A DNA stretch of 24,000 nt, from NCBI RefSeq assembly GCF_006496635.1, contig NZ_CP022958.1, positions 2,342,700-2,366,699 on the forward strand, in the 5' to 3' direction. Under the pieces are notes generated by a model that saw only the letters and a list, made by a program, of their open reading frames with translations, was not told the origin of the DNA and did no database searches. The translations under genes were made by a program, and so were the position numbers. This document shows positions 887 to 20,392 of this stretch, one piece after another; the first letter of the stretch is position 1, and each line of letters opens with the position of its first letter. The stretch comes from Azoarcus sp. DD4 (lineage in GTDB: Bacteria; Pseudomonadota; Gammaproteobacteria; Burkholderiales; Rhodocyclaceae).

Positions 887-1621
887 CTAGGCCGTCGGGG
901 ATGCCGGCATTCGAGCGAGGATGTGCCGAAACAGCTTCGTCACCAACCATCCGGTGTTGGTGGTCCATGCGGCGATCACCACCCAGTAGGCAACGAGGTA
1001 GTCGATCGCATCCGGGTCGAACGAGTGGATCAGCTGTTGGACGTCGATCACGGGTAGGAAAACGAACGGTCCGACAGCGACGATCATGAAGTGGTGGAAA
1101 TTGAGGTGGGCGAAGCGGCGCAGCCGTGCCCGTGCGTATGCGTGAGCGCCTCCGCCGGCCAGGATGTAGGCCGGTATTGCGGAAACATAGGTCACCACGT
1201 GGCCGGGGCTCGTCACCTCACTCGCCCCGGTTGCAGCATCCCGCCACGGCGTGTCGATGGCGCCCAGGGCCGCGGTGGTCACGAGCACAGCCAGAATGTG
1301 AAGCGCGAGCCACGCCACGAGGACCAGGCTGCGCCTGACCTCCTCGGCGGCCGATAGCTCGACCGCCGGGTCGCTGCTCCTTCGAATCCGGCTCCACAGC
1401 GCCAGCGCGAAGCCGCCTTCCGCAAGCCAGACCGGGATGAGCCGCAGCAGTGAGATCGACGGAACGCCGGTGGACAGCTCCGCGCCGAGAGCCCCGAACG
1501 AGCTGGCCAGGTAGAGGCCGACGGCAAACATTGCTGTTACCGCGGCCGCTGCGGCGATGACAGGGCCGGCCTCGGTTGCCCACAAACGAGCTGCAGCGAT
1601 CACGAGTGGGTTCGTGTTCAT
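887..1621 (-). CDS. hypothetical polytopic integral membrane protein (244 aa from MNTNPL...)
   Basis: ORF 887..1828(-). Only the part from the ATG at 1621 (MNTNPLVIAAARLWATEAGPVIAAAAAVTAMFAVGLYL...) looks like real protein, with several hydrophobic helices. The upstream 69 codons are Arg/Ser/Cys-rich junk and would collide with the preceding gene. I recognise no family. Confidence 0.5.
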   Translation of the reverse strand: MNTNPLVIAAARLWATEAGPVIAAAAAVTAMFAVGLYLASSFGALGAELSTGVPSISLLRLIPVWLAEGGFALALWSRIRRSSDPAVELSAAEEVRRSLVLVAWLALHILAVLVTTAALGAIDTPWRDAATGASEVTSPGHVVTYVSAIPAYILAGGGAHAYARARLRRFAHLNFHHFMIVAVGPFVFLPVIDVQQLIHSFDPDAIDYLVAYWVVIAAWTTNTGWLVTKLFRHILARMPASPTA

Positions 1622-1718
1622 CTCTTTGCGCGACCTGGAGTCAGGATGCGAACGCTTTTCACGCCTCAGCGGGGCGAAGCGCCGAGCAGCCCTTCGCCCA
1701 TTCCCCGAACCGGCCGAG

Positions 1719-3047
1719 TCAGTACAATCGGCGCGGCAACAGACCGCACTCGCGAGCCTGTCTCTCCAGGAGTTCGCGGTCGTCGGGATGCGCGATGGAT
1801 ATGAGCGCGCGCACCCTGTCTGGGACACTCTTGCCCTTGAGATTGACGATTCCGTACTCGGTGACCACGTACATCACGTCAGTACGCGGCGTAGTCACCA
1901 CCGTGCCGGGGGCGAGCCCGGAGACGATGCGCGAGCGCGGCTCGCCGCCCTTCAAGTAGCGCGACGACAGGCAGATGAACGACTTGCCGCCCTCCGACAT
2001 GAAGGCGCCGCGCACGAACTGGAGTTGGCCGCCGGTGCCCGTGCAATGCTTGAACCCGGCGCTCTCAGAGGCGACTTGTCCCATGAGGTCGATCTGCATG
2101 GCGTTGTTGATCGACACCACACCGCGGTTGCGGGCAATGTTCTCGGTGAGGTTGGTCTCGTCCACGGGCAGGCTCAGGCACATCTCGTTGCCGTCGATGA
2201 AATCGTAGGTCCGGCGGGTACCGAGGGCGAAGGTGAAGGCGATCTTGCCGCGGAACGTGCTCTTCCGCCACCCCGTGATCTTGCCTGCTTCGGCCAGGTC
2301 CACCATGCCGTCGACGAACATCTCGGTGTGTATGCCGAGGTCCTTGACCGGGCCCGTAGCCAGCGCTGAGCACACCGCGTTGGGCATGCCGCCGATGCCA
2401 ATCTGCAGGCAGGCACCGTCATCGATTTCCGGCAGAATGAGTTCCGCCACGCGGCGGTCGATCTCGGAAATCGGCGCATTCGGCAGCTCGGCGAGTGGGG
2501 CGTTGTCACCCTCGATGACGAAATCGACCTCGGAGATGTGCACAGCATTCTCGACACCGGAGCACCGCGGCATCGCCGTGCTGGTTTCCACCACGATGCG
2601 TCGGGCAGTGTCGCACGCTGCCCGGAGGTAGCTGTTGCTGGCGCCGAAATTGAAGAATCCGTGATGATCCATGGGAGTCGTCTTGATCACCAGCAGATCC
2701 GTGTCGAGGTGCTGCCTGTACAGCCGCGGCCCTTCACCGAAGTTGAATGGGATGTAACTGGTGAGGCCGTCGTCGTGCTTGCGCCTGTCGTAGCCGGAGA
2801 AGTGCCAGTTTTCGACGTGAAAGTGGTGCTGCTCGCGGTCGAGCTCGATCACTTGGCGCGGCTTGACCGAAAGCGCGTTGCGCACGCGCACGTTGCACAG
2901 CTCGTCCTTGCGCGCCGCCAAGGCGGCGTCAAGGAGGTCGGGCTGGCTGATTGCAAATCCATAGTCGACAGTCCAACCGCTCTGCACGAGAGCCGCAATT
3001 TCGTCTGCGGCCGCGGTTTTCTCGGATAGCATCTGTTCGAGATTCAT
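1719..3047 (-). CDS. acetyl-CoA hydrolase/transferase family protein (4-hydroxybutyrate/short-chain acyl-CoA:acetate CoA-transferase-like), 442 aa
   Basis: ORF 1719..3455(-) trimmed to the ATG at 3047 (MNLEQMLSEKTAAADEIAALVQSG...). Family-typical blocks are present: LQIGIGGMPNAV, GIHTEMFVDG, VVSINNAMQIDLMGQVASES, GTGGQLQFVRGA, PRTDVMYVVTEYGIVNLKGKS. The 136 upstream codons are low-complexity Arg/Ser/Pro. Confidence 0.85.
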   Translation of the reverse strand: MNLEQMLSEKTAAADEIAALVQSGWTVDYGFAISQPDLLDAALAARKDELCNVRVRNALSVKPRQVIELDREQHHFHVENWHFSGYDRRKHDDGLTSYIPFNFGEGPRLYRQHLDTDLLVIKTTPMDHHGFFNFGASNSYLRAACDTARRIVVETSTAMPRCSGVENAVHISEVDFVIEGDNAPLAELPNAPISEIDRRVAELILPEIDDGACLQIGIGGMPNAVCSALATGPVKDLGIHTEMFVDGMVDLAEAGKITGWRKSTFRGKIAFTFALGTRRTYDFIDGNEMCLSLPVDETNLTENIARNRGVVSINNAMQIDLMGQVASESAGFKHCTGTGGQLQFVRGAFMSEGGKSFICLSSRYLKGGEPRSRIVSGLAPGTVVTTPRTDVMYVVTEYGIVNLKGKSVPDRVRALISIAHPDDRELLERQARECGLLPRRLY

Positions 3048-6797: not shown

Positions 6798-7900
6798 TAT
6801 TAAGCCGGCAAACAAAAAGAATCTAGTATGATTCGGGGATGAAGAAAATCGACGCCCGCGGCCTGTCCGCCGAATCCCTGGAACTGCTTCGCCGTCAGGC
6901 GCTGACACTGCGCCGAGAGACGGCGCTCACCTGGGCCGAGATTGCCAAGGTGTGCGGCGTGTCGATCTCGACGGTGATGAAGTGGTCGCGCTGGTTTGCC
7001 GGTCAAGGCGAGGCGGCGTTTGTGCCCAAGCGGCGCGGGCTCAAGCATGGCTCGGGCCGCACGCTCACGTTGGCCCAGGAGTTGAAGCTGCGCGAGACGA
7101 TCCTTGCCGGCAATCCCGGCCAACTGAAGTTGCCGTTTGCGTTGTGGAATCGTCGCGCCGTACAGGATGCGGTGCGCCGACTCTTCGACATCGAGATGCC
7201 GATCCGCACCGTGGGCGAGTACCTGCTGCGCTGGGGTTTCACGCCGCAGCGGCCCGCACGCCAGGCGATCGAGCGTAACGACGCGGCGCTGCGCGCCTGG
7301 ATGGACCTGCACTTTCCCGAGTTGGTCGAGCGCGCCAAGCGCGAAGGCGGCGAGATCTACTGGGCCGACGAGACTGCGGTCAAACAGGACGGGCACTGGG
7401 TGCGCGGCTATGCGCCGGCCGGCCAGACCCCGGTGCTGGCGATGTCGGCGCGCTGGACGTCGATCTCGATGATCTCGGCCATCACCCAGAAGGGACTGGT
7501 GCGCTTCGCCTTCCATGAGGGCGCGATCAACAGCGACCGATTCATCACGTTCCTCGAGGCGCTCATCGCCGATGCCGGGCGCAAGGTGTTTCTCATCGTC
7601 GACAACCTCAAGGTGCACCACAGCAAGCCGGTCAAGGCCTGGGTGGCCGAGCGCGCCGAGAAAATCGAGCTCGTCTATCTGCCCTCGTACTCGCCCGAGG
7701 CGAATCCCGACGAGTATCTCAACCGCGACTTCAAGACGAACCTGCGGCAAGGCCCCGTGGCTCGAACAACCGAGCAACTGCTCAAGCTCGCCACGGGCTT
7801 CATGCGTCAGCTGCAGGCCGTCCCGGGGCGAGTCGTTTCGTACTTCAAGCACCCGGCCGTCTCGTATGTCCATATTTCCTAATTGATTGCCGGTTTAATA
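6798..7900 (+). mobile_element. IS630-family insertion sequence, apparently intact (about 1.1 kb) with imperfect terminal inverted repeats and flanking TA
   Basis: The left end is TATTAAGCCGGCAAACAAAAAG (from 6798). The reverse complement of the right end is TATTAAACCGGCAATCAATTAG (ending at 7900). They match at about 19 of 24 positions, and TA is the outermost dinucleotide on both sides (6798-6799 and 7899-7900), as expected for IS630/Tc1 TA target duplication. A single DDE transposase ORF lies inside. Confidence 0.85.
6839..7882 (+). CDS. IS630-family DDE transposase, 347 aa
   Basis: N-terminal HTH region (TWAEIAKVCGVSISTVMKWSRWF), then WNRRAVQDAV, the FTPQRPARQA linker, and catalytic blocks YWADETAV, FLIVDNLKVHHS and LPSYSPEANPDEYLN. 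The antisense ORF 6800..7873(-) is an artefact. Confidence 0.93.
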   Translation: MKKIDARGLSAESLELLRRQALTLRRETALTWAEIAKVCGVSISTVMKWSRWFAGQGEAAFVPKRRGLKHGSGRTLTLAQELKLRETILAGNPGQLKLPFALWNRRAVQDAVRRLFDIEMPIRTVGEYLLRWGFTPQRPARQAIERNDAALRAWMDLHFPELVERAKREGGEIYWADETAVKQDGHWVRGYAPAGQTPVLAMSARWTSISMISAITQKGLVRFAFHEGAINSDRFITFLEALIADAGRKVFLIVDNLKVHHSKPVKAWVAERAEKIELVYLPSYSPEANPDEYLNRDFKTNLRQGPVARTTEQLLKLATGFMRQLQAVPGRVVSYFKHPAVSYVHIS

Positions 7901-8126: not shown

Positions 8127-9023
8127 TCACGGGCGGCGCTGACTAGCGGTCAGCCGCTGCGCCGGAGGGCTGCGTCTTGTCACCAAGCGCAGGAGTTCGT
8201 GGGCTCGCTGGGGGTCGAGCTGGTTCCCTGAGAAGCCGTCCGCGCGGCCGGACGACCGTTCGCCTTGCTGGCCGTCGAGTTGCTGTTGGCGACCGGCGTC
8301 GATAGCGGCGAGGTGTTTCATGTCCATGATGGTGATCGAACGTTGGTCGACCCTGATTACCCCGGCATCCCTGAGCTCCCGCAATGCGCGGGAGAAGCTT
8401 TCGTGGCTCATGCCCAGTAGGCGAGCAACGACCACCTTCGAAGTAGGCATCACCACCGTCCGCTGGGTGTTCTTGCCGTCACAAGGGATCTGGTCGAGCA
8501 AATATGCCGCGATTCGCTCCGTTGCGCGGCGGCCCGTGATAGCCCGGATGTGGCCAACCAGAGAATGAAGCGCCGTCGACAAGGCCTCAAACAAGACAGA
8601 CGCAAAGCGGTCGTCGGTGATCATGGCGGCCTGCACCGCACGCATTTGGATGCAAATCAGGGCCGTATCGCACTCGGCTTCTGCCAGGAGTCCAGCAGAC
8701 GGTGCCGCAAATAAGCACGCCGGCCAAAGGAGGCCTCCCGCCTGCACTATCTCGACGATCTTGGCTGGGCCGCGCAGGCCCAGTACAGCCACAAGCATCA
8801 CACCGCGACCAACCAAAATCAGTTGCTCGCGGAGTGGCCCGGTGGGCAGCAAGCACGATCCCTTGGCGACCACGCGGACGTCGGCGTGACTCGCCAGCAA
8901 GTCCAGTGTGTCAGCGTGCAGGTTCTGGAAGAGAGGCGACGTGGTCAGGGCGCCGGCAATATCGCAAAGGCCCGCGGCGGCCAACGCAGTCGACGTCCGA
9001 GTCTCATGGCAGAACAATTCCAA
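8127..9023 (-). CDS. Crp/Fnr-family transcriptional regulator (cNMP-binding-like domain plus C-terminal HTH), 298 aa with an extra Gln/Arg-rich tail
   Basis: ORF 8127..9023(-). SPLFQNLHADTLDLLASHADVRVVAKGSCL opens the effector domain. The HTH is VARLLGMSHESFSRALRELRDAGVI. There is no Fnr-type N-terminal Cys cluster. It is divergent from the CuMMO cluster across a 636-bp spacer. Confidence 0.85.
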   Translation of the reverse strand: MELFCHETRTSTALAAAGLCDIAGALTTSPLFQNLHADTLDLLASHADVRVVAKGSCLLPTGPLREQLILVGRGVMLVAVLGLRGPAKIVEIVQAGGLLWPACLFAAPSAGLLAEAECDTALICIQMRAVQAAMITDDRFASVLFEALSTALHSLVGHIRAITGRRATERIAAYLLDQIPCDGKNTQRTVVMPTSKVVVARLLGMSHESFSRALRELRDAGVIRVDQRSITIMDMKHLAAIDAGRQQQLDGQQGERSSGRADGFSGNQLDPQRAHELLRLVTRRSPPAQRLTASQRRP

Positions 9024-9404
9024 TTGGATCTCCGGCTCAATGATTAGTCTCTCGGTCCGAGTGGTAGAGGGCGCGACTCACCGAGGAGGAGGGCGCGGTC
9101 TGTTGCGAAAGCCATCGCCGATGCCGGTCCCTGAGATCGGTACGCTGGCTGCCTATGGGGCTCCAGAGAGCCGAGAAGGCATCACGAACCCCATGCCTGG
9201 CGCCTCGGGTCTTTCGCCCACTGCGCACTCGGCCCAAGTTTGCCGCATGGTGCTCGCTGGGCGGTAAATGGCCTAGCCGCAAGATCCGAGCCAACGGCCC
9301 CTGGAGATCAAGCAATGATTGAGTAACCGCAACAGTAAGCGGGCGCTTTCATTCGACTCACGGATAAGAAGCGGCACCCTCGCCGGCAGTCACGCCGCGG
9401 TACT

Positions 9405-9420
9405 TGGCATGGTGCTTGCA
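9405..9420 (+). promoter_or_regulatory. candidate sigma54 (RpoN) -24/-12 promoter TGGCATGGTGCTTGCA, reading toward the FadL-like gene and the CuMMO genes
   Basis: TGGCAT-N5-TTGCA has exact GG-N10-GC spacing and matches the consensus TGGCAC-N5-TTGCW at all but one specified position. It lies in the large intergenic region about 240 nt upstream of the ATG at 9660 and is correctly oriented. Confidence 0.55.
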
Positions 9421-9519
9421 TCTTGCCTCGCGTGCATCGCCAGCGAATTCGCAACAATGTACGTAAGTAGGGCTGATGTGACTCAGCTGGGTGTTTCACG
9501 ATACACATGTGGCGCAGCC

Positions 9520-9563
9520 TGTTACAGAAATGAGCGTGAGAATGTTACAGCCCCGCTGTTACA
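9520..9563 (+). repeat. three direct copies of TGTTACA (9520-9526, 9543-9549, 9557-9563) in the leader/promoter region of the FadL-CuMMO cluster
   Basis: The sequence reads cc-TGTTACAG-aaatgagcgtgagaa-TGTTACAG-ccccgc-TGTTACAT. This is an AT-rich heptamer in a GC-rich genome, clustered three times within 44 bp. One more copy is at 6694-6700. Confidence 0.5.
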
Positions 9564-9659
9564 TATCGCGGGCAAGACATTGGTGGCGTGCGGAAGGCAT
9601 TCGACGGCTGCAGGGAGGCCAGTATGTTTGCATCTGAGTCAAAGGAGAGAGGAGTAAAG

Positions 9660-11087
9660 ATGGGACAAAAACAGAAGAAGGCGATCATTGGCCGTCGCGC
9701 CGGACGACTCGCTGGCTTGAAGACAAGCGGCGCGGGGAGGATTGTGGCGGCGGCCGCCCTCACGTGCGCCACCGGAGCAGCCCACGCGCTTAATACCGGC
9801 ACGGACATGAATTTGTCCTTTAAGCCGGCCTCGGGGGGTATGGCGGGTGCTGCGTACACGAAGCCACAAGAGCCGTCGGCCGCCGTATTCGGTAACCCTG
9901 CGACGATGACTCAGCTCCGCGGAACGAATTTCGGCATCGGGGCTGCCTTTCTCGTTCCCGATGTGGATGTACATCAGAGCGGCGCGGGTGGCTCGCGCAC
10001 ATCGAGCAGTGATGCCCGGAACTATGTCATTCCCGACACCGCCGTCACCCATGAAATCGGTGGCGGCTGGTTCCTCGGTGGCGGTATCGAGCTGGATGCT
10101 GGAATTGGCGTCGACTATAGGGATGATCCCATCACCGTGCCGAGCGTCAGTACCGATCCGGGCGTGAGCGGACTGCCCCTGCTGGTCGAGCTCATTTCGT
10201 TCAACGCCAATGTCGCGGCGGCGAAGCAGGTGACGGAGCGGACCGCGGTTGGCGCGGCGCTTACGATCGGCTTCGGTTTGGCCCAGCTCGGCACCTCCGG
10301 CCCATCCGGGTCGTTTGGAGGGTTGCTTGGACCAGCCGGTTGCGAACCCGCGACGGCGGGTTCGTGCGGATTCGACGGCAACACTTCCAGCGTGCATGAC
10401 GTCGGATTCGGCGCATCGATCGGCCTGACTCACCGCCTCACGTCGGCGCTGACCTTGAGCGCAGCGCTGAAGAGCCCCGTGAAGTACAAATTCAAGAATA
10501 TTCTCCACCAGAGCGCAGTCGGCTCGCCGGGATTCCAGGACCTCACCGTCGAGCAGCCGTTGGAGGCGATCGTCGGTATGGCGTACGACGTCACCCCAAA
10601 CTGGATGGTCGAAGCCGACGTCGTATGGAAGAACTGGAGCAGCGCCGAGACCTACCAAGACGTCTATGACGATCAATACCTGGCCCTCGTCGGCACGCAG
10701 TACCGGACGGGGCCATGGAGTCTGCGCTTCGGCTACAGCTATGCCGAGGATATCCTGCGGGATACCCCCAGCAACACGCTCGGCAACCTGCGCGGGCTCG
10801 GTCCCATTCCGCTCGGGGCGGCTGCAGGTTCCCTCGGTACGGATGTCGTCAAACTGGTCCAGATGACCCTTGTCCCCGTCATCTGGCAGCACACGATTGC
10901 TGCCGGCGTCGGGTTCGACCTCACTTCCAACGTTCGCGTCGACGCATTCGGCGCCTACGGTTTCAAGAACGAAGAGCAGCGGACGACCTCCATCGGCGCG
11001 GCGCTCGCCGGGCCAGTGGGACCGGAAACTTACGAGGCCGAGGTCAGCGCGTGGGCGGTCGGAGCGGGAGTGAATTTCAGGTTTTAG
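9660..11087 (+). CDS. outer-membrane transport protein of the OMPP1/FadL/TodX family (hydrophobic-compound channel), about 475 aa
   Basis: ORF 9588..11087 trimmed to the ATG at 9660, which follows AAAGGAGAGAGGAG. The signal peptide ends ...ATGAAHA. The mature N-terminus has the family-type segment SGGMAGAAYTKPQEPSAAVFGNPATMTQL. The sequence is Gly/Ala-rich in beta-strand pattern and ends ...WAVGAGVNFRF, with the aromatic C-terminus typical of beta-barrel OMPs. Confidence 0.8.
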   Translation: MGQKQKKAIIGRRAGRLAGLKTSGAGRIVAAAALTCATGAAHALNTGTDMNLSFKPASGGMAGAAYTKPQEPSAAVFGNPATMTQLRGTNFGIGAAFLVPDVDVHQSGAGGSRTSSSDARNYVIPDTAVTHEIGGGWFLGGGIELDAGIGVDYRDDPITVPSVSTDPGVSGLPLLVELISFNANVAAAKQVTERTAVGAALTIGFGLAQLGTSGPSGSFGGLLGPAGCEPATAGSCGFDGNTSSVHDVGFGASIGLTHRLTSALTLSAALKSPVKYKFKNILHQSAVGSPGFQDLTVEQPLEAIVGMAYDVTPNWMVEADVVWKNWSSAETYQDVYDDQYLALVGTQYRTGPWSLRFGYSYAEDILRDTPSNTLGNLRGLGPIPLGAAAGSLGTDVVKLVQMTLVPVIWQHTIAAGVGFDLTSNVRVDAFGAYGFKNEEQRTTSIGAALAGPVGPETYEAEVSAWAVGAGVNFRF

Positions 11088-11238
11088 ACGGGGAGGGGTA
11101 TTCGACCCAGGATAGTTGCGTCTGTAGCGGACTGGAACGGTGAATCAAACGACACAGAGTCATTCGCCTGCGCATCGAGCGTGGGTCGATTGAAGAGCGA
11201 AGCCACACAGGTTTCACCCAGGAACAGGAGGAAGGATT

Positions 11239-12039
11239 ATGGGTATCATGCAAGCGGAAGTGGACCAGCCGGCCCGTCAGGTCGATGGGGGAGCGAGCCG
11301 GCCCTCGGCCCGGGCGGATTTTTCGACGGGTGCTATCGCGCCGATTCGCACAACCGCCCTTGGCGTTATCGGCATCCTCGTGCTGATGATCGCGTACAGA
11401 ATCTACCAGCAGGTCTTCGCCTGGTCTGCGGGGCTGGATTCCACGGACCCCGCGTTCGACACCTATTGGATGGGTTTGCTGCAGTGGCAGCTCCCAGCCA
11501 TTGTTGCGAGTTGGGCGGGCTTGTGGTCGTACCTTTTCGTGACGCGTGACCGACACCTCGACAAGCTGGAGCCACGCGAGGAGCTGAAGCGCTATTTCAG
11601 ACTGATCGGTTTCATCTTCCTTTACGCCTTCGCGGTCTATTGGGCGGCGAGCTTCTTTGCAGAGCAGGATGCGGCCTGGCATCAGACGGTGGTGCGCGAT
11701 ACGAGTTTTACACCGAGTCACATCGTGCTCTTCTATGGGACGATGCCGTTCTACGTGCTCTTCGGTGTCGGTTCGCTCCTGTATGCGATGACCCGGCTGC
11801 CGAGATTTGCTGAGCAGCTCTCGATTCCCTTCGTGCTGGCGGTCGCGGGCCCCTTCATGATCCTCCCGAATCTCGGATACAACGAGTGGGGTCACGCTTT
11901 CTGGATGATGGAGGAGTTCTTCTCGGCGCCGTTGCACTGGGGTTTCGTGGTCCTCGGGTGGAGCGTGCTTGCTCTCGGCGGCCTGCTCGTTCAGATCGTC
12001 CAGCATATGACGGAGCTCTTCCGCCGCTGCGACGCATGA
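11239..12039 (+). CDS. amoC: copper membrane monooxygenase subunit C (AmoC/PmoC family), 266 aa
   Basis: FFAEQDAAWHQTVVRDTSFTPSHIVLFYG, LYAMTRLP, GPFMILPNLGYNEWGHAFWMMEEFFSAPLHWGFVVLGWS. Both ligand triads are present: D144-x3-H148-x12-H161 and N215-x3-H219-x13-H233. AGGAGGA precedes the ATG. Confidence 0.96.
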   Translation: MGIMQAEVDQPARQVDGGASRPSARADFSTGAIAPIRTTALGVIGILVLMIAYRIYQQVFAWSAGLDSTDPAFDTYWMGLLQWQLPAIVASWAGLWSYLFVTRDRHLDKLEPREELKRYFRLIGFIFLYAFAVYWAASFFAEQDAAWHQTVVRDTSFTPSHIVLFYGTMPFYVLFGVGSLLYAMTRLPRFAEQLSIPFVLAVAGPFMILPNLGYNEWGHAFWMMEEFFSAPLHWGFVVLGWSVLALGGLLVQIVQHMTELFRRCDA

Positions 12040-12110
12040 GTAAACCCACGGCGGCGGCACCCCTCGTCGGTGGGATGTCGCCACCCGTTTTCGAATAGGT
12101 AACTTCCAAA

Positions 12111-12935
12111 ATGACAAACATTGCTGCATCGGAACAAGTGCGGATCTACGGAGTAACATGGTCGAAATGGTCAGCGGCGCTTTCGAGAAGATTTGACATC
12201 ATGGTTGCGGTGATTCTTTTCCTCGCGATCACTTCCGCCTTTCACCTCCATTTCATGCTGCTCGCCGGCGACTGGGATTTCTGGACCGATTGGAAGGACC
12301 GGCAGTACTGGGTGACGCTGACGCCGATCGTGGCGATCACATTTCCAGCGGCGCTGCACTATGTGTTTTGGGAGAAGTTCAGGCTCCCCTTTGGGGCAAC
12401 CTTTGCGATCGTGTGCCTCATCTTCGGCGAATGGATGAACCGATACTTCGGCTTCCATGTGTGGTCGTACTTCCCGTTCAGCGAGATCTGGCCCGCCACG
12501 ATGATTCCGGGCGCCATCGTCTTGGACGTCGTGTTGCTGCTCACGGGCAATTTCTTCCTTACGGCGGTGATCGGCGGAATAGGATTCGCATTGCTGTTCT
12601 ATCCGGCAAACTGGCCAATGCTCGCGGCCTACCACCTGCCGATGGAAGTCATGAACTCGGTGGTTTCGGTGGCCGACTACATCGGCTACACGTTCACACG
12701 GACCGCCACGCCCGAGTATCTCAGATTCATCGAACGCGGAACCCTGCGTACTTTCGGTGGCCACTCGGCTTGGGTCGCTTCGTTCTTCGCTGGATTCGTG
12801 TGCATGCTTATGTATTTCGCTTGGTGGTATCTGGGCATGCTCCTTACCAAGGTCGTCACCGTCCCGAACAAGTTCAAGCAGTTAATGGGGCTGAAGAAGG
12901 ATCCTCGGCCGTCGAGTGAGCAACTCGCCGTCTGA
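12111..12935 (+). CDS. amoA: copper membrane monooxygenase subunit A (AmoA/PmoA family), 274 aa
   Basis: HFMLLAGDWDFWTDWKDRQYWVTLTPIV, FGATFAIVCLIFGEWMNRYFGF, MIPGAIVLDVVLLLTGN, RTATPEYLRFIERGTLRTFGGHS and WWYLG are hallmark AmoA/PmoA blocks. The SD is weak, so the exact start is slightly uncertain. Confidence 0.96.
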   Translation: MTNIAASEQVRIYGVTWSKWSAALSRRFDIMVAVILFLAITSAFHLHFMLLAGDWDFWTDWKDRQYWVTLTPIVAITFPAALHYVFWEKFRLPFGATFAIVCLIFGEWMNRYFGFHVWSYFPFSEIWPATMIPGAIVLDVVLLLTGNFFLTAVIGGIGFALLFYPANWPMLAAYHLPMEVMNSVVSVADYIGYTFTRTATPEYLRFIERGTLRTFGGHSAWVASFFAGFVCMLMYFAWWYLGMLLTKVVTVPNKFKQLMGLKKDPRPSSEQLAV

Positions 12936-12982
12936 GACCCCGAACAGAACCAAGGGATACACGAATCAAAGGACGAATTTTC

Positions 12983-14239
12983 ATGATTTCGACATTCGGA
13001 AAATGTGTAGTACGGTTGACTTACGCAGTATGGTTCGGAGTACTGCTGTCGCTGTGCGGAAACGCGCTTGCACATGGAGAGCGCAACCAGGAACCCTTCT
13101 TGCGCATGCGCACGGCCCATTTCTATGACTTGCACTGGAGCACGACCAAGACGGAGGTGAATGGCGACATCGTCGTCACTGGCAAGTTCCGTCTGTTCAG
13201 CGACTGGCCAAAGAACCTGCCGGCTCCGGAGCGCTCGTTCCTCGGTAACGGCACGCCGGGTCCGGTTCTCGCACGCACGGAAAGCTGGATTAACGGCGAG
13301 CCGGCGATTCAGTCCGGCCGGCTCGAACTCGACCGCGACTACGAGTTCAAAACCGTGCTCAAGGGGCGCATCCCAGGCAAGCACCACGTGCACCCGATGA
13401 TCAACGTCGAAGGGGCGGGTCCGCTGCTCGGTCCCGGCAGTTGGCTGGAGGTAACGGGTAACGCCGCCGACTTCAAGTTGCCGGCGACGACAATCGACGG
13501 TACTCAAATCGAGAATCTCGAGACGTGGGGCATGGGGACCGTGAAGACCGTCCACATCGGCTGGTACATCGCCGCCCTGGTATTCATGCTGTGGTGGCTG
13601 CGCAAGCCGTTGCTGATGCCGCGTGCGGTTGCTCTGCAAGCCGGTAACGAGGAGGAGCTGGTTACCCGCGGGGACCGTCTCTGGGGTGCGGCTTTCGGCA
13701 TCGCGACCGTGGTCGTCGTGATTTGGGGCGCGAACTGGGCCGAGGCGACCTACCCCCGGACGATCCCGCTCCAAGGAGGCGAGTTCAACGTCGAGCCACT
13801 GCCGATGGACAACCGTACCGTCAGCGTCCGTGTCAGGCGTGCGACGTACGACGTCCCCGGACGTTCCATGAAGCTGAAGCTCGAGCTCACCAACGACGGC
13901 GACAAGCCCGTGTCAATCGGCGAATTCGCAACCGCGGGCCTGCGGTTCATCAACAAATCGGTTCCCGCCGCGGTCGCTGCGATCGATCCGACTTTCCCGA
14001 TGGATCTGGTGCCGCCCAGCGGACTGCAGGTGGCAGACAGCAGGCCGCTCGCACCGGGTGAGACGCGGCTGATCGAGATGGAAGCGACCGATGCAGCTTG
14101 GGAAGCCGAGCGGCTGACCAGCCTGCTGAACGACCCGGACAACCGGGTCGGCGGCCTGCTGTTCCTCTACGACGCTGACGGCGAACGTGTGATCGCCAAT
14201 GTGTCGGGTCCGATCGTGCCAGTGTTCACCAAGTCCTGA
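12983..14239 (+). CDS. amoB: copper membrane monooxygenase subunit B (AmoB/PmoB family), 418 aa
   Basis: The signal peptide ends ...GNALA, and the mature protein starts HGERNQEPFLRMRTAHFYDL. Other blocks are GRIPGKHHVHPMINV, two internal TM helices, ATYDVPGRSMKL, GEFATAGLRFIN and the C-terminal GPIVPVFTKS. The CuB-type ligands H31, H135 and H137 are present. Confidence 0.96.
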   Translation: MISTFGKCVVRLTYAVWFGVLLSLCGNALAHGERNQEPFLRMRTAHFYDLHWSTTKTEVNGDIVVTGKFRLFSDWPKNLPAPERSFLGNGTPGPVLARTESWINGEPAIQSGRLELDRDYEFKTVLKGRIPGKHHVHPMINVEGAGPLLGPGSWLEVTGNAADFKLPATTIDGTQIENLETWGMGTVKTVHIGWYIAALVFMLWWLRKPLLMPRAVALQAGNEEELVTRGDRLWGAAFGIATVVVVIWGANWAEATYPRTIPLQGGEFNVEPLPMDNRTVSVRVRRATYDVPGRSMKLKLELTNDGDKPVSIGEFATAGLRFINKSVPAAVAAIDPTFPMDLVPPSGLQVADSRPLAPGETRLIEMEATDAAWEAERLTSLLNDPDNRVGGLLFLYDADGERVIANVSGPIVPVFTKS

Positions 14240-14262
14240 GCTCCGGGCTCGGATCGTGATGC

Positions 14263-14288
14263 GCGCGGGACCATTCTCGGTCCCGCGC
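14263..14288 (+). terminator. perfect 10-bp GC-rich stem-loop (GCGCGGGACC-attctc-GGTCCCGCGC) just after amoB; possible attenuator or mRNA-stabilising hairpin, no U-tract
   Basis: Read directly from the sequence, 24 nt after the amoB stop and 3 nt before the SD (GGAGAG) of the next ORF. The missing T-run argues against a strong intrinsic terminator. Confidence 0.35.
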
Positions 14289-14301
14289 CACGGAGAGCTT
14301 C

Positions 14302-14916
14302 ATGCATTGTTGGTTTAGATCCAGGCTATTTGCGTTGTTGGCCGTTGGCTTGTGGGGGGGGATCGTCCCCCTTCAGGTCCAGGCTCATGGTGGGCTCAGC
14401 CTGGAGGAAGATAAGTGCAGGCTGACCATCGGCCCGTATTCGATGCACTTCACCGGTTACCAGCCCGAGGCGACCGGGACCAAGGAGTTTTGCGAGGATA
14501 TTCCCGAGACGGGTCACACCGTCGTGGCACTGGACGCCATCGACGAGCAGTTGAGACACCTGCCAATCGAGGTGCGGATCATTCGTGATACCGGTGACGA
14601 GAGCAACATCGACGCTGTGACCGTACTGCATCTGAAGCCCAAAACGTATCCTACGGGGAGCCTCTCCCTTGAGCACGATTTTCCGCAGCCGGGCAGGTTC
14701 GTCGGATTGGTTACCGCGGTTGGGGACAAGGAGACCTACGTCTCCCGGTTTCCCTTCAGTGTCGCCAGCACGTCGGCGGCACTGGCGAAGTACGTCCCGA
14801 TGGTTGGCGTCGTCTTGGCGGGCATCCTGCTCTACCTGTACTCCGGCCAGCGGCGCGGCAGGGAAGCGAGAAAGACGCGCGGTGTAGGCCCGAAGGCAGG
14901 CGGTTCGACCTCGTGA
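14302..14916 (+). CDS. exported single-pass membrane protein in the position, and with the architecture, of PmoD/AmoD/AmoE (signal peptide, about 130-aa periplasmic domain, C-terminal TM helix), 204 aa
   Basis: The signal peptide ends ...LQVQA, and the mature N-terminus is HGG. The Cys/Met/His cluster C39-RLTIGPYS-M48-H49 is followed by FC64EDIPETGH72. The C-terminal TM is YVPMVGVVLAGILLYLY, followed by a basic tail. SD GGAGAG precedes the ATG. The family assignment rests on position and architecture, not on an alignment. Confidence 0.55.
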   Translation: MHCWFRSRLFALLAVGLWGGIVPLQVQAHGGLSLEEDKCRLTIGPYSMHFTGYQPEATGTKEFCEDIPETGHTVVALDAIDEQLRHLPIEVRIIRDTGDESNIDAVTVLHLKPKTYPTGSLSLEHDFPQPGRFVGLVTAVGDKETYVSRFPFSVASTSAALAKYVPMVGVVLAGILLYLYSGQRRGREARKTRGVGPKAGGSTS

Positions 14917-15863
14917 AACGACAATCGAAGCGACTGAATTCGGGAGTCGCGGGGCTGTCGATCGATGGGGCATTCAAGCGAAAGTTCGCCTGGTCGCTCT
15001 GTTCTGTGCTGATTGTCATCGGACTCGGAGCGTGCTCGGGGGCATCAGATGCCGAGATTGCCGCGACACAGCGGGCCTTTGATTATTCGAAGAGCGAGCG
15101 GGAGGCTATCTGTGCGCCGGGCGACAAGTCCGGGGAGATGTTCAAGAACAATGAGAAATCGGCGGACGGAATCCGCTACAACATTCGAGCGCCGGCGAAT
15201 TACGATCCGACGGTCGGACATCCGCTACTGGTCGTGTATGCCGCAGGCGGCTCGAGCGCGGAAAGAACCGAGGCGCTGACGGGCTTCACGCCGGTGGCGA
15301 CAAAGAGGGGATACATCGTGGTTTATCCGGACCACCGTCCCATGTCGGTCGCCACGATTCACCGACTGGCGAGGATTCCAAGCGAAGTCGCGGACCATTG
15401 GTGTGTCGACCGAACGAAGATCTATGCAAGCGGGCACTCTGACGGCGGCACTGTGGCGACCGCGGTTGCGCTATTGGCCGAAACGAAAGGGACGTTGGCT
15501 GCGATCGCCCCCAGTGCCGCGGGCTTTTCCGCAGCAGATCTAGATGGCTTCGAGTGCCCTTCGCCCACGCCGGTAATGGTGATGCATGGCAGCGGGGACT
15601 TGGTCTTTCCCGGCTGGGGAGCGGCGGCTGCCAAGTGGTGGGGTAAGTGTAACCGATGTGACATATCCGTTGGAGCCGAGGAGGTGGGTAGCGGATGCGT
15701 TGAATTCAAGGGCTGCGCGGCGGGCGGCCAGACTCGGTTTTGCAGTTGGGAAGGATCCCATAGACAGTGGCCTGGAATGGAAGGGGAGGTGGTCAATTTT
15801 TTCGATGCTCGTTGGGGCGCCGCGATGAGTTCTTCTGCTCCGGTTCCGGCGCTTGTGAAGTAG
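14913..15863 (+). CDS. lipoprotein alpha/beta-hydrolase, PHB-depolymerase/LpqC-type esterase family, 316 aa
   Basis: The GTG start overlaps the upstream stop (GTGA at 14913-14916). Lipobox is VIGLGAC-SG. Family layout: IRYNIRAPANYDPTVGHPLLVVYAAGG, RGYIVVYPDH, nucleophile elbow YASGHSDGG, PVMVMHGSGDLVFP and a Cys-rich C-terminal part (WWGKCNRC). Confidence 0.75.
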   Translation: MKRQSKRLNSGVAGLSIDGAFKRKFAWSLCSVLIVIGLGACSGASDAEIAATQRAFDYSKSEREAICAPGDKSGEMFKNNEKSADGIRYNIRAPANYDPTVGHPLLVVYAAGGSSAERTEALTGFTPVATKRGYIVVYPDHRPMSVATIHRLARIPSEVADHWCVDRTKIYASGHSDGGTVATAVALLAETKGTLAAIAPSAAGFSAADLDGFECPSPTPVMVMHGSGDLVFPGWGAAAAKWWGKCNRCDISVGAEEVGSGCVEFKGCAAGGQTRFCSWEGSHRQWPGMEGEVVNFFDARWGAAMSSSAPVPALVK

Positions 15864-15881
15864 GTCCAGGACCGGCGTTTG

Positions 15882-15921
15882 GGGGAGGATGCACTACAGA
15901 CAGTCGTCTTCCCCTTTTTTT
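15882..15921 (+). terminator. candidate rho-independent terminator after the esterase gene (GGGGAGGA ... TCTTCCCC followed by T7)
   Basis: An 8-bp stem (one G-U pair), a long 17-nt loop, then TTTTTTT at 15915-15921, 19 nt after the stop. The large loop lowers confidence. Confidence 0.4.
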
Positions 15922-15945
15922 CTTTAACCAGCAAAGGGAAACATC

Positions 15946-16269
15946 ATGAGTGGAGCGAAGCTGATTGTGATCTATCCGATGCCGACGGATGTTGCGGCGT
16001 TCGAAGAGGTGTATCGCGACGAACACGTGCCGATGGCGATGGAAAAGCTCAAGGGAGCAACCAAGATCGTAGCCTCGAGAGTAGTCGGGGCGCCTGACGG
16101 AAACCCGGCCTTTCACAGAATTGCGGAGGTGCATTTCCCTTCTATGGTCGCGTTGGGAGAGTGTGCGGCCTCCGAAGGGGGGCAGCAGACCATCGACCAC
16201 GCGAGGCGGATCTCGTCCGGTGGCGCTCCCCTCTTCCTGGTCGCGGAGGAAGCAACGGTCGTTCTTTGA
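15946..16269 (+). CDS. EthD-family protein (TIGR02118-like small dimeric alpha/beta-barrel protein), 107 aa
   Basis: AKLIVIYPMPTDVAAFEEVYRDEHVPMAMEKLKGATKIVASRVVGAPDGNPAFHRIAEVHFPSMVALGECAASEGGQ... follows the EthD/TIGR02118 pattern as I remember it (K.v.lY..P.D...Fd.yY...H.pl......g.......y.....l.F.s.eal...l.s.eg). Confidence 0.8.
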   Translation: MSGAKLIVIYPMPTDVAAFEEVYRDEHVPMAMEKLKGATKIVASRVVGAPDGNPAFHRIAEVHFPSMVALGECAASEGGQQTIDHARRISSGGAPLFLVAEEATVVL

Positions 16270-16456
16270 GGGGGGCGCGGGGGGCCGCTGTGCTGTGTGC
16301 GTGCCGTTCCCGTGTGGCTACCGGTACGCACTCGTGGCATCGGGTTGGGGCCCCACGTTATTGCTGAGAGGCGGCGGCGTTCGGCCTGGAAGGCGCCGCG
16401 CCGTAGAGACGGCCCTGGAATTTTTCACGTTCCGGGGGCATGAGGAGGACGAAAAG

Positions 16457-16861
16457 ATGCCGAAGCTGGCTGGGTGGATCGCTCGCAGGGGAATCGCGTT
16501 CGGTTTGGCCGTGTTCTGTGCGGGGATGCTGCCGCTCGACGCCAGCGCCCACGCCCGCCTGGTGAAAGCGGAGCCGGCGCGGCGGGCGGAGCTGTCGGAA
16601 GCGCCGGGCATGATCAGAGTGTGGTTCAACGAGGAACTCGAGGCCGCATATGCCAAGCTCGTGGTCGAAGAGGCGTCAGGGCGGGCGGTGACCGAGTCGA
16701 AGCCGCAATTGGCCCCCGACGACGCGAAGTCCCTGATCCTTCCGTTGCCCGCTCTTGGGCCGGGAAAGTACCGCGTGAGATTTCGGGTTCTTTCAGTGGA
16801 CGGCCACGTCGTCGAGTCCGCTTATGACTTCACTGTGAAAGGGGGAGTTTCGACTCGATGA
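16457..16861 (+). CDS. copC: periplasmic copper-binding protein CopC (Cu(II)-site-only type), 134 aa
   Basis: ORF 16121..16861 trimmed to the ATG at 16457, which follows GAGGAGGA. The signal peptide ends ...LDASA, and the mature protein starts HARLVKAEPARRAELSEAPGMIRVWFNEELE. GKYRVRFRVLSVDGHVVES provides the D-x-H motif. There is no Met-rich Cu(I) loop. The stop overlaps the copD start (ATGA). Confidence 0.9.
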   Translation: MPKLAGWIARRGIAFGLAVFCAGMLPLDASAHARLVKAEPARRAELSEAPGMIRVWFNEELEAAYAKLVVEEASGRAVTESKPQLAPDDAKSLILPLPALGPGKYRVRFRVLSVDGHVVESAYDFTVKGGVSTR

Positions 16862-18876
16862 TTGAAGTGGTCGGTGCCGTCGCCCACTGGATACAGCTGG
16901 CAGCCAACATGGTGCTGGTTGGCAGCAGCTTCTTCCTCGGTTTCATAGGATATGACAACGAGAGGTGCACGAATCCTTGGCTGGGGCGGCTTGAGCGCGT
17001 TCTTCCGTGTCTCGGGGCTGTGGTCCTGCTTGGTCTGATCGGTGTCGTCTCGACCTCCACGGCGCGCATCACGGCCGACGTGACAGCCGCCTGGCAGCCG
17101 GACGCCTGGATCGGTGTGATGCGCGATACCCGGGTGGGGCAGGTGTGGGCAATCAGAGGGGGGCTGGCGCTGGTGGTGATGGTGGCCGCGGTTTATGTCC
17201 GGCGGGCACGGGCAAGGTCATGGAATTACTTCGCTTGTGGAGGATTGGCGGGCGTCGCGCTAGCTTTCAGTTCGTTCGCGGGCCATGCCGCAGCCGATGA
17301 CTCACCGTGGTTGACGATCCCCCCTCACACACTGCACCTCCTTGCGGCGAGTCTCTGGTTCGGTAGCTTGCCGGCGTTTCTCGCGTCTGCGTCGGGGGGC
17401 GCCGGTGCCGCGGAGGCGGAGAAGTGCTTTTCCATTCGCGCGCTCAACCGCTTTTCCATGGTCGCGTTGCCGATCATGATCGTCGTCGTCGTCAGCGGCA
17501 TTGTCGTTGCCTACTATCAGGTCGCGCCCGCCTTCGGAGGGCTGGTAGCGACGAGGTACGGATGGCTTCTCCATGGAAAGCTCGCCTTGCTGATCGCTAT
17601 TCTCGCCATTGCAGCGCGAGCTCGATTTCGATGGCTACCTGGGCTCTCCGGCAATTGCGAAATCGAGGAGGCGCAATGTGCGCGACGCCTGCGCACCTGG
17701 GTAGGCGTTGAAGTCGGGTGCGCGACCCTTCTGCTACTTGTCGCGAGCGTGCTGGCGGCCACGGTGCCGGCCAAGCACGAGGGCATCGACGCATGGCCGT
17801 ATCCTTTTCGTTTCTCCATCGCCGCCACCTGGGACGAGCCGGGTACGCGGACCCTCGTGCTCGTCGGCGGCGCGTTGCTGATCGCCGGTGGAGTGGCTGC
17901 GCTGGTCGGGCGGCGCCAGCGGTGGAGGCGTTCAGCCGTTGTCGGCGCCGCCGTCGCCTTCGTACTGCCCGGGACAGCATTGCCGCTCTACGCGATCGCA
18001 ACCCCGGCCAGCGAGTATACCTACCGGCCCAGCACGGTTCCTTTCGACGCCATCTCGATTTCGCGGGGCAGCGCGCTGTTCGAAGCCAATTGTGAGCAAT
18101 GTCATGGCCCCCAAGGCATGGGGAATGGGCCACTGGCGAAATCGCTGCGCAAGCCGCCAATCGATCTTCTTACCGAACCGCATACCGCCAGGCACACTGC
18201 CGGAGATTTCTTCAACTGGATCACCACCGGCTTTCCCGACAGCGGAATGCCGGCATTCGGCGATCGGTTTTCGGAGGACGATCGGTGGGACCTGGTGAAT
18301 TTCATCCACGCGCTGTCGCGCGGCTACCAGAGCCGCCCCCTAGGTGCCGCCGTCATTCCGGACAAGCCTGCAGCGACGCTCGGCGCTCCCGATTTTTCGT
18401 TCGTGAGCTACAAGGGCGAACAAGGAACGCTGAAGGATCACCGCGAGCGCGAGGCTGTCCTGCTGGTGTTTTTCTCCTGGCCGGAATCCAAGGACCGGCT
18501 GGACCAATTGGCCGCCACATACCGGTCGATCCGGGCACGAAGTGCTCAAGTCATCGCTGTTCCGTGGAAGGGCGCGGCCTCTGCCGTTGATCAATTGGCC
18601 GGTTATCCATACCCGATTGTGGCCGATGGCGCGCGGGGAATCGGGCGAACCTACGAGGCGTTCAGGCGAACTCTATCGGACCCGGACCTGTTCGGCAGGG
18701 GCAAGCGACCCGGTCATATGGAACTTCTCGTCGACCGCTTCGGTTACCTGCGTGCGCGCTGGATTCCGGATCAAGACGTTCGAGGTTGGAGAGACGGAGC
18801 GATGCTGGCTGAACAACTGGAACGCTTGCGCGCGGAAAGACAGATCCTGCCGCCGGCGGAGGAACACGTCCACTAG
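16858..18876 (+). CDS. copD: CopD-family inner-membrane copper transporter fused to a mono-haem c-type cytochrome domain and a C-terminal Cys-less thioredoxin/AhpC-TSA-fold domain, 672 aa
   Basis: The N-terminal 300 aa or so are polytopic and CopD-like, and translationally coupled to copC. Further TM helices follow. Then comes FEANCEQCHGPQGMGNGPLA (CxxCH, aa 412-416, nt 18091-18105) with downstream SGMPAFG and DRWDLVNFIHAL, typical of class I cytochrome c. The last 170 aa or so resemble redoxins (FSFVSYKGEQGTLKDHREREAVLLVFFSWPESKD...VIAV...YPIVAD...YEAF) but contain no cysteine. Confidence 0.85.
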   Translation: MIEVVGAVAHWIQLAANMVLVGSSFFLGFIGYDNERCTNPWLGRLERVLPCLGAVVLLGLIGVVSTSTARITADVTAAWQPDAWIGVMRDTRVGQVWAIRGGLALVVMVAAVYVRRARARSWNYFACGGLAGVALAFSSFAGHAAADDSPWLTIPPHTLHLLAASLWFGSLPAFLASASGGAGAAEAEKCFSIRALNRFSMVALPIMIVVVVSGIVVAYYQVAPAFGGLVATRYGWLLHGKLALLIAILAIAARARFRWLPGLSGNCEIEEAQCARRLRTWVGVEVGCATLLLLVASVLAATVPAKHEGIDAWPYPFRFSIAATWDEPGTRTLVLVGGALLIAGGVAALVGRRQRWRRSAVVGAAVAFVLPGTALPLYAIATPASEYTYRPSTVPFDAISISRGSALFEANCEQCHGPQGMGNGPLAKSLRKPPIDLLTEPHTARHTAGDFFNWITTGFPDSGMPAFGDRFSEDDRWDLVNFIHALSRGYQSRPLGAAVIPDKPAATLGAPDFSFVSYKGEQGTLKDHREREAVLLVFFSWPESKDRLDQLAATYRSIRARSAQVIAVPWKGAASAVDQLAGYPYPIVADGARGIGRTYEAFRRTLSDPDLFGRGKRPGHMELLVDRFGYLRARWIPDQDVRGWRDGAMLAEQLERLRAERQILPPAEEHVH

Positions 18877-19751: not shown

Positions 19752-20216
19752 GTGATCCGAATCAAGTTCCTCCGCAGGCTCACCGCCTGGATTGCCAGCT
19801 ACGCGATCCTGCTGGGCGCGCTCGCACCGGCCGTGACCCAAACCTTGGCGTGGTTGGAACGCGGGAGTGCAGACAAAGCCACATCGTTGGAGGTTTCGGC
19901 GGCCGCCGACATCCTCACGTCCGTGGGGGCAGAGGAGGACGGCCATGAGGCCTGCGAGTCCCACGAAGGCCACGCGGGTCACCAGGACCAGGGCCTCGAG
20001 GGTCATGAAGGGGGCGGTCACGAGGCCGCGGGCAGCGGGCATTGTCCCTTCTGCGGCACCCACGCCGGTTCCTTTGGCCTGCCGCCCACCGAACGGCCTG
20101 CGGCGGCGCAGCCCGCCGGGACGCATGCTTTCCGTCCCCATCTCTACGATCACGCCCCGCGTCCGCTCTTCGCCTGGGCGGCCGCCCATCCTCGCGCACC
20201 GCCTGTCCGCGCCTGA
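19752..20216 (+). CDS. DUF2946-like protein (N-terminal TM/signal anchor, His/Glu-rich linker, HCPFC motif), 154 aa
   Basis: GTG start. MIRIKFLRRLTAWIASYAILLGALAPAVTQTLAW, then EEDGHEACESHEGHAGHQDQGLEGHEGGGHEAAGSGHCPFCGTHAGSFGLPP. The architecture, the CPxC motif and the position just upstream of a TonB-dependent receptor are typical of DUF2946 as I recall it. Confidence 0.65.
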   Translation: MIRIKFLRRLTAWIASYAILLGALAPAVTQTLAWLERGSADKATSLEVSAAADILTSVGAEEDGHEACESHEGHAGHQDQGLEGHEGGGHEAAGSGHCPFCGTHAGSFGLPPTERPAAAQPAGTHAFRPHLYDHAPRPLFAWAAAHPRAPPVRA

Positions 20217-20392
20217 TCCCGATCGATGAGCCGGTATTCCCCTGCACGGTGGTCCGGCTCAATTTCAACCCGATCCGTTAGCCCCGACTGTTCCGTTGAA
20301 TCGTCGCCGTCCCGATGAGGCCGGCGGCTGCCGCGCGCTGCCAGCGCCGGCCGGGATCGGGGCTCCGGGATGTCTCGTCGTGGACCCGAAAT

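Follow-up and report, generated by a model that had tools for sequence, protein, structure and literature searches.

Why should the gene of an outer membrane channel for hydrophobic molecules stand immediately in front of the genes of a copper membrane monooxygenase? The question is raised by a stretch of 24,000 nucleotides (nt) of the Azoarcus sp. DD4 genome (the window; C1:2342700-2366699, where C1 is contig NZ_CP022958.1). In it a gene of the FadL/TodX family, here called fadL, is followed by xmoCAB, which encodes subunits C, A and B of the single copper membrane monooxygenase (CuMMO) of this complete, 5.4-Mb genome of ~63% GC. No CuMMO was found in the genomes sampled from the same genus (six) and from the same family (36). 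Orphan CuMMO clades outside the nitrifiers and methanotrophs are without an assigned substrate, and a hydrophobic-substrate channel as the first gene of an operon, with the regulon of the butane monooxygenase close by, hints directly, and in a testable way, at short-chain alkane oxidation. The reading that we favour, with moderate confidence, is that the channel serves for the passive uptake of the hydrophobic substrate of the CuMMO, probably C2-C9 alkanes, and is co-transcribed with xmoCAB, their sigma-54 promoter being controlled by an alcohol-sensing activator. Our results suggest that this CuMMO oxidises short-chain alkanes rather than ammonia or methane.

An earlier note on this DNA had placed the fadL product in the OMPP1/FadL/TodX family, an assignment that our analysis confirms: the protein scores 75.1 bits against the Pfam family PF03349 (Toluene_X; cut-off 29.7), and 64.6 bits in a six-frame search of the genome, and the hidden Markov model (HMM) searches assigned it to no non-FadL family. 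Its scores stay below the cut-offs of two NCBIfam models, the FadL equivalog NF007988 (24.6 bits, cut-off 585) and the BamG equivalog NF053685 (23.3 bits, cut-off 250). The open reading frame (ORF) starts with ATG downstream from a Shine-Dalgarno-like AGGAG, which is also kept in Thauera butanivorans. About residues 1-43 resemble a signal peptide, which ends with AHA before L44, and the C-terminal residue is Phe, an outer membrane insertion signal. An AlphaFold2 (AF2) model built with 69 homologs has a predicted local distance difference test score (pLDDT) of 87 and a predicted template modelling score of 0.83; in it the disordered residues 1-46 (pLDDT <50) are followed by short helices, the plug, and then by a long series of strands. 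The channel is accordingly modelled as a monomeric 14-stranded beta-barrel with an N-terminal plug. The plug contains the NPA motif, marked in the PDB by the entries for the FadL mutants N33A, P34A and delta-NPA; here it is N79-P80-A81 (9894-9902), which all 68 aligned homologs have without exception and which lines up with the CymD NPA. The predicted S3-kink glycine, G148 (10101-10103), is found in all 69 homologs and corresponds to G105 in the alignment with CymD. Structure prediction had been proposed in the earlier note as a way to find an N-terminal hatch and a lateral opening: the hatch appears as the predicted plug with its invariant NPA, and the opening is suggested by a strand break at residues 148-173 of the model, starting at the predicted S3-kink glycine. 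Lateral diffusion and the role of the S3 kink have been described for FadL-family channels, without which even toluene does not pass the outer membrane efficiently (PMC7728783).

The relatives of known structure tell to which branch of the family the channel is closest. As a single sequence it found no relative in the PDB, and only a profile search worked: the profile of its subfamily matched CymD (9e-25), TodX (7e-24) and TbuX (1.5e-18), and E. coli FadL at ~1e-8. In a Foldseek search with the model, FadL, TodX, TbuX, CymD and Pseudomonas aeruginosa FadL occupy ranks 1-24 (E 3e-37 to 6.5e-25; TM-scores up to 0.79), with E. coli FadL placed first, unlike in the profile search. Judged by the sequence profiles, the channel is nearer the hydrocarbon branch (TodX, TbuX and CymD) than fatty-acid FadL. 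Two further family members are encoded in the source genome, a canonical FadL (362 bits) and a TodX-like protein (170 bits). The TodX-like paralog is ~4 kb from a diiron hydroxylase gene (C1:2478183-2479397 and 2483093-2484283, both on the minus strand), which is the classic arrangement of a channel plus a monooxygenase, in the same genome.

The anatomy of the locus points to one transcription unit headed by fadL. The earlier note had described fadL as ending 151 nt before a co-oriented amoC-type gene, with no convincing terminator in between and with a shared promoter candidate upstream that was the only strong one, and all of this withstood our analysis. The two genes are co-oriented and the gap is exactly 151 nt. 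A consensus scan of 8800-14400 gave no plus-strand terminator and no sigma-70-like promoter able to split fadL from xmoC, the fold of the spacer is no more stable than that of shuffled sequence (z = -0.5), and Rfam had no match in 9000-11400, spacer included. The first 70 nt of the spacer are kept in T. butanivorans, up to the junction of a deletion considered below; aligning the spacer to the regions upstream of xmoC in relatives was uninformative. When the 24-kb window was scanned for the sigma-54 motif TGGCAY-N5-TTGCW, with up to one mismatch allowed, a single match was obtained, which has no mismatch, lies 240 nt before the fadL ATG and is kept in T. butanivorans. From this gene anatomy we infer that fadL and xmoC are co-transcribed.

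The surroundings of the operon speak for alkanes. BmoX, 92% identical to its T. butanivorans counterpart, is encoded 27 kb upstream of fadL in the source genome, and BmoR (84% identical) ~16 kb upstream; the identities of the T. butanivorans BmoX and BmoR were confirmed through cluster names. BmoR responds to alcohols and activates Pbmo, the sigma-54 promoter from which the butane monooxygenase operon is transcribed (PMC6366067; PMC8899819), and T. butanivorans grows on C2-C9 alkanes, butane being taken via 1-butanol to butyrate (PMC4085564). The soluble butane monooxygenase (C1:2323820-2325430; locus L109, 7815-9410, minus strand) and the CuMMO (11239-14239) are within ~30 kb of each other in one genome, a pair that resembles the soluble and particulate methane monooxygenases (sMMO and pMMO) of methanotrophs. 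Where T. butanivorans has IS21 (istAB) between bmoR and bmoX, the source genome has a resistance-nodulation-division efflux pair (AcrB-like and CusB/HlyD-like; L109, 10814-16340).

The closest homolog of the channel is itself from T. butanivorans (NBRC 103042, WP_068635409, annotated as an OmpP1/FadL family transporter; 89% identity over 475 aa), in which RpoB is 92% identical to that of the source genome. There bmoR is at a distance of 3 kb and bmoX at one of 8 kb from the fadL ortholog, and perfect -24/-12 motifs precede both bmoX and fadL, the fadL motif aligning with that of the window. The window and the T. butanivorans locus have in common only 9470-11157 (83.6% nucleotide identity) and 15844-16479 (97%), and these two segments are joined in T. 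butanivorans by ~35 nt (blastn and junction alignment; scar at L005, 11495-11534). Because T. butanivorans keeps the 3’ end of the esterase gene, its last ~18 nt, the difference is a loss in T. butanivorans and not an insertion in the source genome; the alignments thus indicate that xmoCAB, the pmoD-like gene and the esterase gene were lost there by deletion. In T. butanivorans copC breaks off near residue 118, where it is joined in frame to a PAS-histidine-kinase/receiver gene. After the loss of xmoCAB fadL has remained intact (dN/dS 0.105, dS 0.53, for nonsynonymous and synonymous substitutions), and the literature searched reports no function for this ortholog. The T. butanivorans type strain thus once had, and lost, a particulate monooxygenase beside the soluble one, and its channel gene makes simple genetic work possible in a model that can be cultivated. 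The unequal divergence of the two kept segments points to a mosaic, recombinant history of the island.

The closest sequences to XmoA are metagenomic (up to 81% identity), and its named relatives are from Bradyrhizobium niftali (67%), Haliea ETY-M (59%), the ethane oxidisers ET-HIRO and ET-SHO, and Cycloclasticus. A maximum-likelihood tree groups the XmoA of the window with B. niftali and metagenome sequences in a starred clade, apart from both the PmoA/AmoA/Pxm clade and the ET-HIRO/Cycloclasticus clade. We considered and rejected a label of the type found in betaproteobacterial ammonia-oxidising bacteria (AOB), for which the cut-offs of the NCBIfam models AmoA/B/C_BACT are exceeded, yet the tree sets subunit A outside AmoA, PmoA and Pxm. 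In four Burkholderiales genomes and at the majority of 80 metagenomic CuMMO loci, the gene of subunit B is directly followed by one in the PmoD position. The gene of an esterase or polyhydroxyalkanoate (PHA) depolymerase-like protein is a regular component of non-nitrifier xmoCAB-D-copCD clusters (window 14913-15863; L006, 7142-7771; L118-L121). Together with an aldehyde dehydrogenase and an acetyl-CoA transferase encoded at a similar locus in a metagenome-assembled genome (MAG) of Vitreoscilla, the esterase may hint at an ester intermediate from sub-terminal oxidation.

In the reading we favour, fadL would be the first gene of a sigma-54-driven unit, fadL-xmoCAB-pmoD-esterase(-copCD). The hydrophobic substrate, most probably a C2-C9 n-alkane such as butane, would cross the lipopolysaccharide barrier through the channel, into the outer membrane or periplasm, and so reach the CuMMO of the inner membrane. 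Transport would be passive, the plug and the S3 kink giving a lateral exit from the barrel into the membrane. Induction would probably come from the alcohol-sensing activator BmoR and include the soluble butane monooxygenase encoded nearby. Co-transcription, control by BmoR, the substrate and the direction of transport are what we infer from the locus. The argument of the earlier note that the pairing speaks for a larger or more hydrophobic substrate stands in part: XmoA lies outside the AmoA/PmoA clade, bmoX and bmoR are nearby and the profile is nearest to CymD, TodX and TbuX, but the pairing is not conserved and the subfamily also occurs in methanotrophs. A bolder version, which we regard as doubtful, is that the channel is the first known member of a dedicated ‘gas-alkane’ branch of the FadL family, needed for the high-affinity uptake of C2-C4 alkanes and co-regulated by BmoR with both the soluble butane monooxygenase and a particulate, CuMMO-type butane monooxygenase, in parallel to sMMO and pMMO, the particulate half having been lost in T. 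butanivorans.

Several observations weigh against the uptake of alkanes through this channel. Gaseous alkanes are generally assumed to cross membranes unaided, and it is this usual assumption, that small alkanes pass the outer membrane without help, which our finding questions. We know of no FadL-family channel for which C2-C4 alkanes have been demonstrated as substrates, and the literature searched held no paper linking FadL to a CuMMO. No member of the window XmoA clade in the tree has an assigned substrate. Acyl-CoA synthetase genes are found near the channel gene here and in Cycloclasticus, which fits a role in fatty acid uptake. The 151-nt gap could hold a promoter of a type outside our scan models, and a search for a BmoR-binding or other upstream activator sequence shared between the bmoX and fadL promoters gave nothing beyond a GC-rich palindrome of T. 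butanivorans, which the source genome does not keep. Adjacency of channel and CuMMO, moreover, was the exception in our survey. Our metagenome set comprised 80 CuMMO loci; at 31, six of them of the window clade, the sequence reaches 1.5 kb or more beyond the first CuMMO gene on its upstream side, and a FadL of the subfamily was found in none of these 31. Neither did the four non-AOB Burkholderiales with xmoCAB-D-esterase-copCD have a FadL-family gene within 4-9 kb upstream. The adjacency being unseen in these 31 loci and four genomes, the enzyme therefore works without an adjoining channel in most lineages.

The searches behind this survey were of several kinds. Searches of all 80 metagenomic loci with tblastn, the subfamily HMM and phmmer (the two paralogs as queries) detected no such FadL, and a Pfam search of 60 ORFs upstream of CuMMO genes had no Toluene_X among the 25 commonest families listed. 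In a sample of 401 Burkholderiales genomes a CuMMO was present in ten, namely the source genome, five from the nitrifier family and the four others. The sole verified second case is Vitreoscilla sp. MAG_67, in which a fadL of the subfamily stops 73 nt before xmoC and is followed, in this order, by xmoCAB, esterase, pmoD, aldehyde dehydrogenase and acetyl-CoA transferase genes. Its divergent upstream regulator has a BmoR-like sensor domain, without an AAA+ domain. Identity between this MAG and the source genome is 75% for RpoB, 49% for XmoA and 50% for FadL, and the MAG XmoA forms a long branch elsewhere in the tree, not in the window clade. A possible third pair, FadL P0156 with XmoA P0004, comes from Logan contigs (longest for each 11,231 nt), and the two may share one contig. 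The earlier note had asked how often FadL/TodX genes neighbour CuMMO operons across genomes; in our survey the fadL-CuMMO pairing is rare and is no conserved feature of CuMMO operons.

The subfamily itself is sparsely distributed. Outside the source genome it gave a weak match in one of 400 Burkholderiales genomes, it was found in two of 399 scored Gammaproteobacteria (one match being weak), and among 201 genomes searched from the family of the Vitreoscilla MAG it was present in that MAG only. It was not found in nine nitrifier-family genomes, five of them with amoA. It is more frequent in Methylococcales (25/151), where 22 of the 25 genomes carry a CuMMO; the Methylococcales tally of 112/151 includes one unpublished genome, G108. 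Genome-level co-occurrence (6/8 genomes; 22/25 Methylococcales) was nevertheless discounted as support. The co-occurrence in Methylococcales is uninformative because the CuMMO background there is 71%, no FadL match at the listed coordinates is near an A-subunit gene (pairs beyond 11 loci share no contig), and at none of the 11 Methylococcales FadL loci is a CuMMO gene a conserved neighbour. In nine genomes of type-Ib-like methanotrophs the subfamily gene heads a flavin-monooxygenase cluster, far from pmoCAB. Since in canonical methanotrophs the subfamily belongs to a different operon, its presence says nothing either way on methane. The order in these nine clusters (L122-L130; for example L125, 6656-15000), all on one strand, is flavin mononucleotide (FMN) reductase, acyl-CoA dehydrogenase (ACAD)-like, OsmC-like, luciferase-like monooxygenase, second ACAD-like and ribBA, an Ssu/Sfn/Dsz/LadA-like arrangement. 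In Cycloclasticus and Methylococcaceae UBA2780 (L007, 9917-20639; L008, 4371-11467) the neighbours of the subfamily gene are an acyl-CoA synthetase gene and an IcmF-like fusion gene (MeaB plus B12 mutase), and in one Cycloclasticus genome the channel gene is present three times in tandem. In one MAG it adjoins a full-length BmoR homolog (35% identity). The channel appears to serve the local operon in each setting, the subfamily having been recruited to different catabolic operons, and the local operon is therefore the best guide to its substrate.

In a different reading, which we think unlikely, the channel imports another hydrophobic nutrient, such as short- or medium-chain fatty acids, alcohols or esters, that feeds the same pathway, its position reflecting pathway clustering and not the supply of the CuMMO with its substrate. 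An AMP-binding acyl-CoA synthetase and an acetyl-CoA hydrolase/transferase are encoded upstream in the window, the Cycloclasticus and UBA2780 genes have the company just described, the esterase is conserved in the cluster, and T. butanivorans retains the channel gene without a CuMMO. The acyl-CoA genes of the window are, however, on the opposite strand and beyond a transposase, the profile is far nearer to CymD, TodX and TbuX than to fatty-acid FadL, the FadL equivalog model is far from matched, and the genome has its separate canonical FadL. It seems to us quite improbable that the adjacency is positional only, with fadL and xmoCAB separately transcribed and regulated and brought together by the history of a mosaic island. 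Such a history is consistent with the pairing not being seen in most CuMMO loci examined, with the IS630 transposase 2 kb upstream, with the difference in nucleotide identity to T. butanivorans between fadL (83.6%) and the copC remnant (97%), and with the deletion that separated fadL from xmoCAB in that species. A gap of 151 nt without terminator or promoter motif argues against it, as do the conserved motif upstream of fadL, the sole promoter motif present, and the unrelated MAG in which a gene of the same subfamily stands 73 nt ahead of an xmoC of great divergence.

The earlier note had also allowed for the export of a hydrophobic product, for which we found nothing in support. FadL-type channels are passive and flux would be possible both ways (PMC7728783), so a hydrophobic or toxic alcohol or epoxide might leave the cell through the channel; but all characterised family members are uptake channels, the operon has no efflux-type partner, and the products are the carbon source, as the route of butane via 1-butanol to butyrate in T. 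butanivorans illustrates (PMC4085564). We consider this exit very unlikely. Hardly credible, finally, is a role outside transport, whether as a BamG-like accessory subunit in outer membrane biogenesis or in copper acquisition. The weak NCBIfam match to BamG, of 23 bits, is set against a cut-off of 250, and the FadL-like subunits of the beta-barrel assembly machinery (BAM) of Bacteroidota at Foldseek ranks 25-27 are much weaker matches than FadL and TodX; copper genes (copCD and a TonB-dependent receptor) do occur in the same cluster, but the nine nitrifier-family genomes, five with amoA, which share CuMMO and copper handling, were found to have no member of the subfamily.

The features of the window are collected in Table 1. 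The Crp-like regulator has no conserved counterpart in T. butanivorans, where an AraC-type gene takes its place. Further upstream in the window, besides this regulator and the IS630-family transposase (DDE_3; 6839-7882, plus strand), are a methyltransferase gene and the genes for the acyl-CoA synthetase and acetyl-CoA hydrolase/transferase already mentioned. A 313-aa ORF at 887-1828 (minus strand) has a weak, above-threshold Pfam AmoC match (54 bits, profile positions 72-203) and encodes, 9 kb away from the operon, an orphan AmoC-like membrane protein of great divergence. The genes that follow copCD, for a DUF2946 protein and a TonB-dependent receptor (19752-22675, plus strand), possibly belong to the copper-supply set.

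Table 1. Positions, strands and supporting evidence of features in and around the fadL-xmoCAB unit (positions count from the first letter of the window; aa, amino acids)
Feature	Position	Strand	Evidence
Sigma-54 type -24/-12 promoter motif, TGGCAT-N5-TTGCA	9405-9420	+	Sole match in the window
Three TGTTACA repeats in the leader, candidate operator	9520-9563	+	Read in the sequence; 2/3 copies kept in T. butanivorans
fadL, FadL/TodX-family outer membrane channel, 475 aa	9660-11087	+	Pfam 75.1 bits; AF2 model; Foldseek; profile against PDB
fadL-xmoC spacer, 151 nt, with AGGAGG ribosome-binding site before xmoC	11088-11238	+	No terminator or promoter motif
xmoC, CuMMO subunit C	11239-12039	+	Pfam AmoC 321.6 bits
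xmoA, CuMMO subunit A	12111-12935	+	Pfam AMO 332.8 bits; tree
xmoB, CuMMO subunit B	12983-14239	+	Pfam Monooxygenase_B 473.6 bits
PmoD/AmoD-position protein, 204 aa	14302-14916	+	Position conserved; without Pfam match
Esterase/PHA-depolymerase-like protein, 316 aa	14913-15863	+	Weak NCBIfam match; kept in related xmo clusters, that of the Vitreoscilla MAG among them
copC and copD fused to cytochrome c and thioredoxin-like domain	16121-18876	+	Pfam CopC, CopD, Cytochrom_C, AhpC-TSA
copC alone	16121-16861	+	
copD-cytochrome c fusion	16858-18876	+	
Crp-like regulator, divergent	8127-9023	-	Pfam HTH_Crp_2
Block absent from T. butanivorans NBRC 103042: xmoCAB, pmoD-like gene, most of esterase gene	11158-15845	+	blastn and junction alignment

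The arrangement of fadL with a CuMMO looks undescribed in the literature searched and, mechanistically, like a variant of the theme known from TodX and TbuX. The monoaromatic channels TodX and CymD (Pseudomonas putida F1) and TbuX (Ralstonia pickettii) have in common with the channel of the window the Pfam family, the predicted fold, the NPA motif and the S3-kink glycine, and they are its best sequence-profile matches among solved structures. In each case the channel gene is encoded with the operon of an oxygenase whose substrate it would import. The window channel differs in being only ~18-20% identical to them in structure-based alignments, in having as its partner a copper membrane monooxygenase and not a dioxygenase or diiron enzyme, in its presumed substrate, a short-chain alkane and not an aromatic, and in the sigma-54 promoter of its gene. 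With E. coli FadL, the source of the top Foldseek matches (TM-score 0.65-0.79), it shares the family and, by prediction, the lateral-diffusion architecture, but the profile match is weak (~1e-8), the equivalog score is 24.6 against 585, and canonical FadL is encoded separately in the genome. The T. butanivorans ortholog, at 89% identity, has the same sigma-54 motif and leader and the same bmo neighbourhood, and differs in being followed by a deletion scar in place of xmoCAB. Alkane-type xmoCABD clusters have reportedly been described by Rochman et al. in 2020 from Rhodoferax and Polaromonas, Betaproteobacteria that are neither nitrifiers nor methanotrophs, and are said to be linked to the use of ethane or propane; a FadL homolog 63% identical to the window channel bears the name of Rhodoferax ferrireducens.

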